Of a stretch of 64,000 nt of DNA, positions 61,564 to 63,810 are shown piece after piece. The position numbers were made by a program, and so were the translations under genes. Under the pieces are notes generated by a model that searched no databases, had not been told where the DNA came from, and saw nothing but the letters and a program-made list of their open reading frames with translations. Source of the stretch: Candidatus Thorarchaeota archaeon (lineage in GTDB: Archaea > Asgardarchaeota > Thorarchaeia > Thorarchaeales > Thorarchaeaceae). Within the stretch, counting starts at the first letter, position 1; each line of letters begins with the position of its first letter. Where the stretch lies: the NCBI GenBank assembly GCA_011364985.1, contig RDOC01000006.1, forward strand, positions 1-64,000. Reading direction: 5' to 3'.

Positions 61564-62007
61564 TCAGATGATTGGGAATAAACCCGTTTCCTCCTTGTTA
61601 GAGCGGATAATGTCCCTTAGGAAGAATATGCCTGAGATGATGAGTATGTTCAGACCAGCAAAAACGAGCCCGTCAGGGATTAGTTGCAGGAGGGTCGGTC
61701 CGGGGTCAATAATATGAGATTCCGATGGATTCCAGAGATATGGGAGTACCAACCCGACGCACATCAGTAGAAACCCAACCACGAAGCTGGCAACAACCAT
61801 CCGTGTCATTTGTTCTTTCTGTTTGGGAATTTCTAGATAGAGTTTACTATCTGCTATTGGTCCTCCTGATTGCACCAGTAGTACGAGCAGAGAGTTGGGA
61901 CAAAAGAGCAGACTGAAGACAAAGATGCTATTCATTGCAGTTATTGCGCCCTTTTTGTGGGCAGGCTTGTACATAGGACCGTTCCTATTACTCGCTGCTG
62001 GACTCAT
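61564..62007 (-). CDS. small membrane protein (start possibly at 61809)
   Basis: Two clear TM segments in the C-terminal ~80 aa. Confidence 0.5.
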   Translation of the reverse strand: MSPAASNRNGPMYKPAHKKGAITAMNSIFVFSLLFCPNSLLVLLVQSGGPIADSKLYLEIPKQKEQMTRMVVASFVVGFLLMCVGLVLPYLWNPSESHIIDPGPTLLQLIPDGLVFAGLNILIISGIFFLRDIIRSNKEETGLFPII

Positions 62008-62123
62008 CCCATTAGCGAAATCATAGACAGTCGGAGAGATACCTTAGCCATCTGATACCACGAAACCGTTGCGAGAACACAGTCAAGGTATATTCATATT
62101 TAAAGAACCACCCGTAATTAGGA

Positions 62124-62203
62124 CCTCATGTGTAAACAGCCAGGCCCGTCGGCACAGCCGCGTCTTGCAGGCCCTGCCACAACTAGCTGTTTACACAAGG
62201 AGG
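62124..62203 (+). ncRNA. putative structured RNA leader (multibranch)
   Basis: TGTGTAAACAGCCAG / CTAGCTGTTTACACA (14/15) enclosing two GC hairpins; begins about 20-25 nt after TTTAAA. Confidence 0.55.
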
Positions 62204-62229
62204 CAACATCTGATCAGAAGTGAGAACAG

Positions 62230-62310
62230 ATGAGTAAGGGCAAAGGCAAGGCCAAGACAAAGGCCAAGACTGAAAAGGCCCCTGCTAAGGGCAAGGGCAA
62301 AAAGAAGTGA
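62230..62310 (+). CDS. 26-aa Lys-rich microprotein (not in ORF track)
   Basis: MSKGKGKAKTKAKTEKAPAKGKGKKK; own promoter-like and terminator-like elements. Confidence 0.65.
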   Translation: MSKGKGKAKTKAKTEKAPAKGKGKKK

Positions 62311-62359
62311 CCGACGGGTGTTCTGCACTCCAGGTTTAATCTTAGAACCGTGCAGCTGA

Positions 62360-62405
62360 GCGGGAAGTGAATCTTCCCGCCCACATTTATTTTTCTTTGG
62401 TTTCT
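62360..62405 (+). terminator. GC hairpin plus T-rich tract
   Basis: GCGGGAAG-TGAAT-CTTCCCGC followed by TTTATTTTTCTTT. Confidence 0.65.
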
Positions 62406-62735
62406 ACAGGACTTGTCCACTGCTCAAATTGTGAGCAAATGGTACCAGCAGACAAGGCGAAGAAATTCAATCGAAGTATGTCAGTTATTGAACTCCAGAT
62501 TGCCAGAGAGCTTAGAGAACAAGGAAGCTGCATTCAGGCACGTCGTGTGACTTCCTACTACTGCATTAGTTGTGCTGTTCACATGGGCAAGCTTCACGTT
62601 TGGGATTCCAGCCAAAGAAAGCCAATTTCCAAACGGTTACCGCCCACCGCAAAATGGAAGAATCGAAGGTATTCATTGGTCATCGGGTTAGTGACACTTT
62701 GTGCCTCTCGACGAGGATCACTACAAGAACACTGA
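62397..62735 (+). CDS. rps26e: ribosomal protein eS26 homologue, N-terminally truncated (possible pseudogene)
   Basis: VHCSNCEQMVPADKAKK...ARELREQG...YCISCAVH matches the eS26 Zn ligands; the basic N-terminal arm is absent. Confidence 0.75.
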   Translation: MVSTGLVHCSNCEQMVPADKAKKFNRSMSVIELQIARELREQGSCIQARRVTSYYCISCAVHMGKLHVWDSSQRKPISKRLPPTAKWKNRRYSLVIGLVTLCASRRGSLQEH

Positions 62736-62813
62736 CCAGCTGGAAGATTGAAACTGGGTAGATCCAGATGATTGACCACCGGTCTAGTTCATAGAACAAG
62801 AAATTCATGGGAA

Positions 62814-63188
62814 TCACTTGCAAAGCAGAAGAGCCAGAATGGCATAGAGCACAGTCGTCTTAGGTGCCTCTTCTCTCATGAATTGCCTCTCAGTACAAAT
62901 AATGTAGAGACTGAGTGGGAGAATAACAACTGCCCAGAGTGATACAGTATCAATGGGGAAAACAAGCCCTACTGTGGTATGCGGGCCAGTGATTGTGCTG
63001 CCAGTTTCATAGGATGTAGACCACAGTGCTGCAATCAGTGTATATCTTGTGTACCCTCCGTCAGGATAGTAAGAATATCGTGTAGTTTCCAGAGTGTGAG
63101 AAGCGAGTAGAGCAACAAGAAAGGGCAGCGCATGGATTTTCGATATGTGCTTGGATTTGTCGTTAGCATCAAAACGACTCGTGGGCAT
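62814..63188 (-). CDS. hypothetical membrane protein (possibly degenerate)
   Basis: Hydrophobic segments only. Confidence 0.4.
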   Translation of the reverse strand: MPTSRFDANDKSKHISKIHALPFLVALLASHTLETTRYSYYPDGGYTRYTLIAALWSTSYETGSTITGPHTTVGLVFPIDTVSLWAVVILPLSLYIICTERQFMREEAPKTTVLYAILALLLCK

Positions 63189-63306
63189 TTCATCAATTGA
63201 TTAATGGCAAGCGACATGCTGAGTAATGAAGCAATACGAATGAGGCTTCTTGCTCTACTAATGCTCAAATCATAACATTATAGTCAGAGCATGAGTAGCC
63301 AAGGTT

Positions 63307-63810
63307 ATGGACTCAAGAGTGGAGATGCCATCTGAAACAGGCTATGCAGTGAGAAGGGGAAATGTGACTGATGCTTTGCAAATATCCCTCTTGTACAAGC
63401 GAGTGTGGGATGAGTTTGAGAGTCTATTTCCAAAAAAACTGAAAGAATCTAGGCAGCCTTCTGAGGAGGAAATGAAGAGCTGGATGACCAAAGAAACCTA
63501 TTTCATTGCCGAGGTCGAAAGAGAGACAGTTGGAGTTGTTGGATGTCGAATATTGCATTCAGCATGTCAGTTGGTCCATATGGTTGTTGATAGACCTTGC
63601 CGAGGGAAGGGCATTGGCACCGCTTTAGCTAGGACTGCGATAGATTTCGCAAGAGAGAACAACTCCTTCAAGGTCTGGTTGGACACCATCCCAATCATGA
63701 AAGAGGCAAAAGCCCTCTATGAGAAGCTTGGCTTTGTGAAATGTGGGTATTTGAGAAGACACTTGTACGGACTTGATATTGAATTGTATGAACTCGTTCT
63801 TGTTTCTTAA
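63307..63810 (+). CDS. GNAT-family acetyltransferase
   Basis: VDRPCRGKGIGTAL (motif A) and AKALYEKLGF. Confidence 0.92.
   Translation: MDSRVEMPSETGYAVRRGNVTDALQISLLYKRVWDEFESLFPKKLKESRQPSEEEMKSWMTKETYFIAEVERETVGVVGCRILHSACQLVHMVVDRPCRGKGIGTALARTAIDFARENNSFKVWLDTIPIMKEAKALYEKLGFVKCGYLRRHLYGLDIELYELVLVS

Follow-up and report, generated by a model that had tools for sequence, protein, structure and literature searches.

[quoted passage not shown] Asgard versions of the protein consist of a basic N-terminal arm, with the motif KKRKS.GR.KG, joined to a zinc-ribbon core. Of the other Asgard eS26 copies inspected, at least 70 have the arm contiguous with the core, and the arm motif itself adjoins the core at 32 of the 32 other loci translated. 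Some Thorarchaeota carry two copies: two matches to the eS26 profile are present in about 18 of the 77 genomes of the family that have any match, and the second copy was confirmed to be full length in the two-match genomes apart from two copies cut by contig ends. In 13 further two-copy Thorarchaeota genomes, the arm of the second copy is contiguous with the core (save for the two at contig ends), the profile match starts at position 1-2, and neither an interrupted nor an arm-less second copy was found. With numbers such as these, ribosome heterogeneity based on eS26 paralogues may be a real theme in Thorarchaeota. Given the role of eS26 in the exit channel, alteration of the arm in a second eS26 could shift the ribosome's preference among mRNAs.

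Can such a gene be interrupted? In the literature searched, the only well-documented type of archaeal mRNA intron is the BHB intron of the cbf5 pre-mRNA in Crenarchaeota, the splicing of which has been proven experimentally (PMC2738675). Three other Asgard genomes have genuine-looking BHB introns of 29 to 31 nt in rps26e, the gene for eS26. All are in phase and of the canonical class, with 31 nt in the genome labelled G149 and 29 nt in G202 and G208, and the last two differ by compensatory changes in the helix h'. These introns occur in the sole eS26 gene of their genomes, after the first CxxC knuckle (between VxR[D/S] and KAK), and have G-C or mixed central helices. They place arm and core in different frames, and cuts after the second bulge nucleotide bring the frame back.

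The window analyzed here, a stretch of 64,000 nucleotides from a Thorarchaeota MAG (1.7 Mb in 22 contigs, 74% complete), contains a second eS26 gene that departs from this arrangement. At 62400-62735 on the plus strand is the zinc-ribbon core of a type-B paralogue that has no N-terminal arm. The query 62367-62735 matches PF01283 with 41.5 bits (cut-off, 27; E value, 2.1e-10) over positions 19 to 97 of the 108 in the profile, and a second search with PF01283 gave the same result for 62409-62642. The four cysteines of the zinc ribbon are kept (HCSNCEQ and YYCISCAVH), and the motifs VPADKAKKF, IARELR, and YYCISCAVH are unbroken. The basic arm, which should precede them, is not joined to the core, as the start of the match at position 19 also reflects. 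The frame of the core is open from 62346, with TTG at 62397 and ATG at 62439 as possible starts. An intact canonical eS26 gene lies on another contig (C17:102072-102350, 66 bits), making the paralogue redundant.

An orthologous core occurs in the closest relative, the type-B eS26 P0002 (G016:C267, 94 amino acids), which has the same four cysteines, the motifs VPADKAKKF, IARELR, and YYC.SCAVH, and, as in the window, a GNAT gene downstream. The two cores are 68 to 72% identical in amino acids and 76.5% identical in nucleotides. Homology at the DNA level spans 62408-62698 and begins at about 62408, which corresponds to a point 53 nt into the G016 gene. To the left of this breakpoint, the window lacks the contiguous MAKKRKS.GRAKGG arm of G016, its TTG start, and its AGGTGA Shine-Dalgarno sequence. 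What the window has is a short Lys-rich ORF 86 to 92 nt upstream of the core, on the same strand but in a different frame.

The core has also evolved rapidly. It has 12 to 16 unique amino acid changes versus 0 to 2 in G016 (relative rate, p from 0.007 to 3e-5), it departs from the family residue at 7 of the 31 columns conserved to 90% or more and at 4 of the 14 without any variation, and its branch dN, as derived from the codon comparison, is about 0.134 versus about 0.008. The ancestral stop codon, TAA in G016, has become TTA and is followed by a 32-codon, partly hydrophobic C-terminal read-through (62637-62732, plus strand). In being a redundant second copy with faster substitution at conserved sites, a lost start region, a lost stop codon, and lineage-specific rearrangements of its flank, the gene resembles decaying ribosomal-protein paralogues. 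It differs from them in two respects. Compared with the ancestral arm, the detached one is more basic, and the core is free of indels and internal stops, with some 21 amino acid changes over the 76 alignable codons. Omega is 0.14 over the whole path and, by our own estimate, about 0.27 on the window's branch. With the frame undamaged, these values are more easily reconciled with continued translation than with a long-dead pseudogene.

What, then, is the short ORF? Located at 62230-62310 on the plus strand, it comprises 26 codons delimited by stops on both sides, MSKGKGKAKTKAKTEKAPAKGKGKKK, of which 12 (46%) encode Lys, and it has no hydrophobic stretch. A weak Shine-Dalgarno-like GUGAG precedes its ATG. 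Among the genome's 11,957 ATG-initiated ORFs of 20 to 60 amino acids, it alone has at least 35% Lys, and the ten remaining Lys-rich 26-codon stretches all lie within ORFs of 149 to 667 amino acids. The first-pass annotation of this DNA had likened the peptide to histone tails and had suggested that it could bind chromatin or the ribosome. The histone comparison comes down to composition: neither a histone fold nor any other Pfam domain was found in the 26 residues at E values up to 1, and the similarity to real basic tails was no better than that of shuffles. The ribosomal suggestion was probably right, for a reason that the annotation did not give, namely, that the peptide adjoins an arm-less eS26. 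Since no other short ORF in the genome is so rich in Lys and the comparable stretches are inside long ORFs, its position next to the only arm-less eS26 is very unlikely to be a coincidence. Most likely, this mini-gene does not specify a free-standing histone-like peptide but is the basic arm from the N-terminus of a second eS26 that evolves fast. Most likely, too, the arm has been cut from the remainder of its gene by a stop codon and a hairpin-rich stretch of 92 bases, whether through gene damage or through an intron of the tRNA type.

That the short ORF descends from the arm, or replaces it, is suggested by its position and composition rather than by alignment. Compared with the eS26 arm at the protein level, 98.6% of shuffles score equally well or better, and at the DNA level the p value is 0.45. 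The idea that the ORF is an alignable descendant of the arm was rejected on these figures, and its likeness to real eS26 tails is one of composition only. A perfect 12-nt tandem duplication, AAGGCCAAGACA, at 62248-62270 on the plus strand (TRF, 1.9 copies, 100% matches), encodes KAKT-KAKT and indicates recent slippage in a low-complexity tract. The openness of the frame is itself barely informative, as the 78 nt contain only 5 T's, another frame is likewise open, and the centre is duplicated.

How might the arm have been parted from its core? The reading that we favor, at somewhat less than even confidence, is that of a broken gene in which the two pieces are not rejoined. The second (type B) eS26/rps26e gene would have been interrupted in this lineage, its arm portion becoming a Lys/Gly/Ala low-complexity tract that was widened by slippage and now ends in UGA. 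Between this tract and the zinc-ribbon core in the other frame would lie 92 nt of hairpin-rich, lineage-specific sequence, brought in when a rearrangement or insertion broke the 5' end of a paralogue under relaxed constraint, which also lost its stop. The stems and the T-tract of the region would then be by-products of inserted sequence and not a regulatory device. Consistent with this, relatives lack a counterpart of the left side of the break, which comprises the leader, the short ORF, the spacer, and an orphan ORF farther upstream. The short ORF, the leader with its stems, and the spacer have no homologues in 40 relatives, and the orphan, a membrane ORF, has no orthologue in 16 genomes of the genus. 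The 92-nt spacer was also compared with the sequence that precedes the G016 gene. The highest-scoring local alignment takes in the TATA region of G016 at a similar spacing, but with a p value of 0.39 the proposal that the spacer is the ancestral promoter or 5' untranslated region was rejected.

Not everything agrees with a broken gene. The core retains 76% identity and the arm region cannot be aligned, so no common rate of neutral decay accounts for both, and neutral decay does not predict an ORF richer in Lys than the ancestral arm. A canonical-class, in-phase BHB motif lies exactly at the stop, and rps26e genes of other Asgard archaea do contain BHB introns. If the pieces are indeed unspliced, the locus offers a clean snapshot of a ribosomal-protein paralogue under dismantling. 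It would also serve as a warning that "novel basic microproteins" beside truncated genes are often gene fragments.

The BHB motif just mentioned brings in a second explanation, which we consider possible but distinctly doubtful: the 92-nt segment that begins with the UGA stop and ends immediately upstream of the core (62308-62399, plus strand) could be an intron, removed by the tRNA-splicing endonuclease and a ligase. The candidate motif is aaa AAGA [AG/U] ga ... uu UCUU [UG/G] uuu, with bulges at 62306 (b1) and 62398 (b2), a 3-bp helix h (AAA/UUU), a 4-bp central helix H (AAGA/UCUU), and a 2-bp helix h' (GA/UU). It thus has the 4-bp central helix, the opposite 3-nt bulges, and the at least one flanking helix of two or more pairs by which a BHB was recognized. 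This topology and the position of the cuts were calibrated on the genome's own tRNA-Ser(CGA) intron, and the definition of the BHB in bioRxiv 10.64898/2026.10.13.758758 agrees with them. Cutting after the second bulge nucleotide would take out exactly the stop and join 62307 to 62400 in phase, with exon 1 ending in K26 and exon 2 beginning with GTT, so that K26 is followed by VSTGLVHC. The product would be an eS26 paralogue of 137 amino acids, MSKGKG...GKGKKK/VSTGLVHCSNCEQ..., with a new and longer basic arm, and would be neofunctionalizing. The intact frame of the core fits such an intron, as do the Lys-rich ORF at the exact place expected for an arm exon, the abundance of tRNA introns in the genome, a second in-phase register (62305/62394; L=89, h=3, h'=3), and the precedent set by G149, G202, and G208. 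Like those introns, the candidate belongs to rps26e of an Asgard archaeon, separates the frames of arm and core, and would restore them through a canonical-class BHB; with cbf5 it would share the endonuclease mechanism.

How convincing is the motif? In broad shuffles, a BHB with both flanking helices arises by chance in only 3.7% of trials. When the local composition is kept, an in-phase canonical BHB appears in 75 to 86% of shuffles and one with both flanking helices in 16 to 26%. With a single exception, the pairs are A-U or G-U and are formed by an A-run opposite a T-run; the pairing is weak, and this local composition largely accounts for the candidate. A register of similar quality, 62304/62395, is out of phase. 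Moreover, the interruption is common to no relative, all other second copies being contiguous, in contrast to the shared introns of G202 and G208 with their compensatory changes. Those of G149, G202, and G208 are shorter than the 92 nt seen here and follow the first CxxC knuckle, whereas the window's candidate precedes the first Cys and is a singleton in a fast-evolving second copy. The cbf5 intron, for its part, belongs to another gene and phylum. Excision would yield an arm and a core in phase, yet the putative first exon lacks the otherwise invariant KKRKS.GR.KG motif. The relaxed constraint and lost stop of the core also count against an intron, as does a T3-A-T5-C-T3 run inside it, which would be unusual (T5 occurs in none of the genome's tRNA introns listed). 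No eS26 protein of the spliced form was found in a collection of 5.8 billion proteins.

The fuller proposal, that a 92-nt BHB intron in a new position, ahead of the first zinc knuckle, joins a lineage-specific Lys-rich exon to a fast-evolving second eS26 to give a specialized exit-channel protein whose basic arm has been remodelled, we regard as unlikely. Were splicing to occur, Asgard rps26e would have one more mRNA intron, larger than the others and the first to be located in a paralogue. Archaeal mRNA splicing would then not be confined to short introns such as those of rps26e and cbf5 but would include a longer one that joins a newly evolved exon. Such a case would be a hint that introns of the tRNA type contribute to the building of new N-terminal exons in Asgard archaea, and it would bear on the origin of exon-intron gene structure in the archaeal relatives of eukaryotes. 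An alternative excision with GT...AG ends (62234-62409, giving MRLVHCSNC...) would also be in phase, and a pyrimidine tract is present. It was treated as chance, since it gives no account of the Lys-rich ORF and no spliceosome is known from Archaea.

Could the short ORF instead belong to a transcription unit of its own? The first-pass annotation described 62098-62405 as such, either a regulated mRNA or a dual-function RNA, and all the elements it listed are present in the sequence where it placed them. In this view, transcription would start from a promoter at 62099 and end at the downstream hairpins and T-tract, and the structured RNA would be translated into a free-standing Lys-rich microprotein with chromatin or the ribosome as its binding partner. 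The unit could be unrelated to eS26 or only functionally coupled with it, a case that includes a two-piece eS26 with arm and core produced as separate polypeptides. The unit does exist and is unusual, and its predicted structure is strong: the MFE of its 308 nt is -111.9 kcal/mol (z, -4.47; none of 100 shuffles as good), and that of the leader stem-loop (62124-62202, plus strand) is -39.3 kcal/mol (z, -3.68), both statistics resting on one single sequence. The leader stem pairs 62129-62143 with 62183-62197 (15 nt, 93% complementary) around small GC hairpins, is extended by CCUC (62124-27) and GAGG (62199-202), and is one of only two hairpin-type inverted repeats of at least 13 nt in the 64 kb. 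Also in keeping with an independent unit are the ATG after the GUGAG, the Lys content unique in the genome, the duplication in frame with the frame kept, and the order of hairpins and T-tract downstream. These are a CUGCAC (62323-28)/GUGCAG (62350-55) hairpin with an inner GGUUU/GAACC stem (62323-62355, plus strand), an 8-bp GC hairpin, GCGGGAAG-UGAAU-CUUCCCGC (62360-67/62373-80, plus strand), and the tract TTTATTTTTCTTT (62386-62398, plus strand), which is terminator-like or, alternatively, the 3' half of the BHB candidate.

The candidate TATA box, TTTAAA at 62099-62104 (plus strand), is 131 nt from the ATG, an atypical distance in a genome whose TATA-like hexamers peak 30 to 70 nt before starts. 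T5 tracts follow 8% of the genome's long ORFs, which is about background. With no such enrichment at gene ends, the reading of the hairpin and T-tract as a terminator was set aside as unproven. Alternative long-range pairings had been put forward between CCGACGGG (62311-18) and CCCGTCGG (62145-52) and between ACGGGTG-TTCT and AGAACCACCCGT (62104-15); by our estimate, a span of 300 nt should contain about 0.7 such 8-nt complements by chance, so the pairings carry no weight. The 5'-3' fold-back would also need 62100-62115, which is upstream of any transcript begun from the proposed TATA box. As mentioned, peptide and stems have no homologues in relatives, a finding that the annotation itself had named as counting against its proposal, and searches of metagenomes, phages, and Rfam added no comparative support for a regulated mRNA or dual-function RNA. 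The stem arms had three matches in the metagenome scan, all unrelated AT-rich hairpins, and a phage origin was rejected when the phage search gave only a 46-nt low-complexity match. Two other grounds on which the annotation would have given way came out negative. Rfam 15 yielded no family for the unit, the best being a chance mir-30 match (17 bits against a gathering score of 50.2; E value, 1.3), and a MITE or other repeat element was rejected because the leader is single copy, with no second copy in the genome. Further against independence are the uninformative open frame in T-poor sequence, the membership of all other Lys-rich stretches in long proteins, and the position beside the one eS26 without an arm, which under independence would be a coincidence of about 1e-4 by our estimate. 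We consider an independent unit improbable.

The annotation had also compared the architecture to that of type I toxin mRNAs. A type I toxin mRNA is defined by a small, hydrophobic, membrane-active peptide. The locus does have a short ORF within a highly structured RNA and a predicted 5'-3' pairing, but the hydrophobic peptide is missing, 12 of the 26 residues being Lys, and no antisense RNA is known at the locus. Taken as a whole, the annotation's interpretation finds partial support.

A last explanation, very improbable in our view, is that arm and core are united by recoding (a programmed frameshift, stop read-through, or bypass) or that they were brought together by a chimeric assembly. 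Their location on one strand in different frames would suit recoding, and a MAG with the completeness and contig number given above could harbor a chimera. The basic nascent peptide and the stop with which the arm ends bear a loose resemblance to T4 gene 60. The open frames do not overlap, however: the arm ends at the UGA at 62308, and the core frame is shut by TAA at 62337 and TAG at 62343, so that one shift of +1 or -1 cannot join them. Read-through of the TGA remains in the wrong frame, and an in-register AAG or AAA landing codon is absent between 62343 and 62412. Frameshifting, read-through, and a gene 60-type hop are excluded by these stops and the missing landing codon. A random join, in turn, would not set the only Lys-rich short ORF before an arm-less eS26.

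The minus strand opposite the short ORF carries two hydrophobic ORFs, at 62191-62328 and 62214-62420. CTT is the complement of AAG, and their hydrophobicity is an automatic consequence of the Lys codons on the plus strand.

The features that the first-pass annotation described in the 308-nt unit at 62098-62405 are real and unusual. All are there, including 8-nt and 11-nt long-range complements. On the plus strand, the sequence holds a TATA-like box, TTTAAA (62099-62104), a CUGCAC/GUGCAG hairpin (62323-55), an 8-bp GC hairpin (62360-80), and a T-tract (62386-98). A repeat scan returns a 15-nt, 93% complementary plus-strand inverted repeat extended by CCUC/GAGG (62129-43 with 62183-97), and ORF translation gives a 26-codon short ORF (sORF; 62230-62310, plus strand). 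The unit's predicted fold reaches -111.9 kcal/mol (z = -4.47, with dinucleotide shuffles as background), the leader stem-loop by itself scores z = -3.68, and just two hairpin-type inverted repeats of at least 13 nt occur across the 64-kb window. Among 11,957 ATG-ORFs of 20 to 60 aa in the 1.7-Mb genome, the sORF alone contains at least 35% Lys. The openness of its frame counts for less than the annotation suggested: the tract is T-poor, with a second frame likewise open, and a perfect 12-nt tandem duplication forms its middle.

Some of the roles suggested for these elements carry less weight. The long-range pairings have their complements, but by our estimate chance alone should supply a matching 8-mer inside 300 nt. 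The TATA-like box sits 131 nt 5' of the ATG, whereas the genome-wide peak of these hexamers falls between -70 and -30. The hairpins and T-tract are present, but T5 tracts are not enriched 3' of genes here, such runs following the stop codons of 8% of long ORFs; on sense strands they are mildly depleted (0.49 versus 0.80 per kb). The proposed likeness to type I toxin mRNAs fails because the peptide is hydrophilic. When checked, the locus matched no Rfam family and was not a repeat in its own genome, and a phage search ruled out phage origin. On the minus strand, ORFs of 45 and 68 aa (62191-62328 and 62214-62420) contain Leu/Phe-rich, transmembrane-like segments, an automatic consequence of CTT complementing the many AAG codons of the sORF; nothing indicates that they are genes.

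What lies downstream? The next same-strand ORF, open from 62346 with possible starts at TTG 62397 and ATG 62439, encodes ribosomal protein eS26 (PF01283 profile match, 41.5 bits; cut-off, 27). The match covers profile positions 19-97 only, so the basic N-terminal arm is missing; HMM score and zinc ribbon identify the protein as eS26, while the contiguous arm is absent. Since an intact canonical eS26 lies on another contig of this Thorarchaeota-type Asgard MAG (C17:102072-102350), the eS26 gene of the window must be an additional one. The gene nearest to it, in the same-genus genome G016 (contig C267), encodes a contiguous 94-aa protein, MAKKRKSAGRAKGGSGHKGPVQCSKCGR..., and no relative closer than 72% identity (nearest protein) occurs in the collections searched. 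In 32 of 32 other translated eS26 loci, the KKRKS.GR.KG arm is contiguous with the core, as it is in both copies of 13 further two-copy Thorarchaeota genomes, except for two second copies cut by contig ends. Two eS26-profile matches occur in about 18 of the 77 Thorarchaeota-family genomes with an eS26 match; second copies are full-length in all those inspected, the same contig-end exceptions aside, and the copies whose sequences were read fall into types A (LGKKRKSGGRSKG...VDPQL) and B (MAKKRKSSGRAKGG...VEPQI). Duplication of this exit-channel ribosomal protein is a standing one. In one same-family genome, the sole eS26 gene (G357:C7 25281-25557, minus strand) is put out of frame by one surplus G following ...VDPQ, through either sequencing error or genuine breakage.

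Just 86 nt 5' of the single arm-less eS26 in the genome, on the same strand, lies its single Lys-rich short ORF; the remaining 10 Lys-rich 26-codon stretches are all within ORFs of 149-667 aa. By our estimate, the chance of independent placement is about 1e-4, and the sORF is therefore read as the arm portion of the window eS26, through descent or replacement. Rather than a histone-like peptide gene standing on its own, it is probably the arm of an eS26 paralogue that has been interrupted. The reported histone-tail likeness proved compositional: against real eS26 arms the peptide shows no similarity beyond composition-matched shuffles, 98.6% of which equal or outscore it at the protein level (DNA p = 0.45). 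The locus is not a histone, having neither histone fold nor histone homology, and a free-standing histone-like microprotein is unlikely. The spacer between sORF and core and the leader likewise do not resemble the region upstream of the G016 gene (p 0.39-0.49). An independent unit, or a two-piece protein, would have to accommodate the coincidence of placement and is improbable. Recoding or an assembly artefact is more improbable still. A single frameshift cannot join arm and core, as there is no overlap between their open frames (UGA 62308; core-frame TAA 62337, TAG 62343), and a translational hop is rejected because the landing codon is absent.

Are the two pieces still joined? The paralogue may instead have been broken and its pieces never rejoined, leaving a gene recently inactivated or decaying. 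This is the likeliest of the readings, if short of probable, and several observations favor it. The canonical eS26 elsewhere provides redundancy, the invariant arm motif is gone, and the arrangement is common to no relative. The core has accelerated: against G016, dN = 0.142 and dS = 0.99 (omega = 0.14), with nonsynonymous change, as placed by outgroups, nearly all on the window branch (derived values of about 0.134 versus 0.008). Tajima-type counts of unique changes are 12-16 for the window and 0-2 for G016 (p = 0.007 to 3e-5). Among 31 columns with conservation of 90% or more, the window core departs from the consensus in 7, and among 14 invariant columns in 4, exceeding every other sequence in conserved-column deviations, even those at phylum distance. 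The ancestral stop has also been lost (TAA to TTA), adding 32 partly hydrophobic residues. Constraint on the window eS26 appears relaxed or altered. Even so, nothing marks it plainly as a long-dead gene: the 76 alignable core codons contain no indels or stops, the four Cys and main motifs are all kept, and we estimate a window-branch omega of about 0.27, far under 1.

In the window and in G016 alike, eS26 is followed by the same GNAT gene. Shared DNA homology is confined to 62408-62698 and 63258-63746 of the window, the left breakpoint falling 53 nt inside the G016 gene. To judge by comparison with relatives, the entire left flank appears lineage-specific, including an orphan 147-aa predicted membrane ORF (61564-62007, minus strand) for which 16 same-genus genomes yielded no homologue and all Pfam matches stayed below threshold; this flank, too, favors a broken gene. 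On the right (62698-63258), the eS26 copy is separated from GNAT by about 490 nt absent from G016. This second lineage-specific insertion contains an orphan 124-aa minus-strand ORF (62814-63188) with no Pfam match.

Alternatively, a tRNA-type (BHB) intron could join the sORF arm to the core, a somewhat less likely reading. In its favor, the core is intact, the arm grew more basic instead of decaying, an in-phase motif is located at the stop, and Asgard rps26e offers precedent. The geometry, that of a recent preprint (bioRxiv 10.64898/2026.10.13.758758), was calibrated on the genome's tRNA-Ser(CGA) intron, gacggt CTCG [AA|G] cc ... gg CGAG [GC|A] accgtt (bulges bracketed, cut at the bar). Many of the genome's tRNA genes (16 ARAGORN predictions) are intron-bearing, several at non-canonical positions (e.g., tRNA-Ser CGA, C22:17104-17204), so BHB splicing should be active in this organism. 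Exactly at the sORF stop codon is an in-phase, canonical-class motif, aaa AAGA [AG|U] ga ... uu UCUU [UG|G] uuu. With the predicted cut behind the second nucleotide of each bulge, 62308-62399 (92 nt) would be excised to give ...GKGKKK|VSTGLVHCSNCEQ.... By itself the motif is weak evidence. Its pairs are nearly all A-U or G-U, the A-rich sORF end facing the T-tract; an alternative in-phase register (L = 89) and an out-of-phase one of similar quality are also present. In-phase canonical motifs occur in 75-86% of local-composition shuffles, and with both flanking helices in 16-26%, or in 3.7% of a broad shuffle.

By analogy, the locus may work either as a fragmented paralogue or like mRNAs subject to BHB splicing, putatively those of rps26e and by experiment those of cbf5 (PMC2738675). 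It is an interrupted ribosomal-protein paralogue, on the reading favored here, and may bear an intron. If so, a longer mRNA intron would join a newly evolved exon in an Asgard archaeon, and this candidate is concrete and cheap to test. The protein concerned, eS26, controls which mRNAs are selected at the exit channel (PMC11698992).

The precedents first surfaced as weak eS26 profile matches. In three other Asgard genomes, rps26e is interrupted by in-phase, canonical-class BHB introns whose predicted excision yields perfect eS26, which raises the prior that an Asgard eS26 interruption is an intron. The intron in the G149 gene (C1, about 2278820-2279147, plus strand) is 31 nt, with a CGCG/CGCG central helix, gcct CGCG [AT|G] ... 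CGCG [AT|A] aggc, with an outer flanking helix of h = 4 and the junction VPRD|KAKRVT. Those in the G202 gene (C6 441732-442036) and the G208 gene (C264 271-602), both minus-strand, are 29 nt, TGCA [AG|A] gtg ... cac TGTA [AA|A], giving VAR|SKAKAV; their inner flanking helices (h') are 3 and 7, with compensatory G:C to A:U changes. The G149 site lies 4 nt from theirs, and the genome belongs to another family, which makes an independent gain probable. All three differ from the window candidate in size, position, helix strength, and conservation, and each lies in its genome's sole eS26 gene. A further match restricted to profile positions 30-98 (G285:C246:4507-4701) is probably intron-bearing as well.
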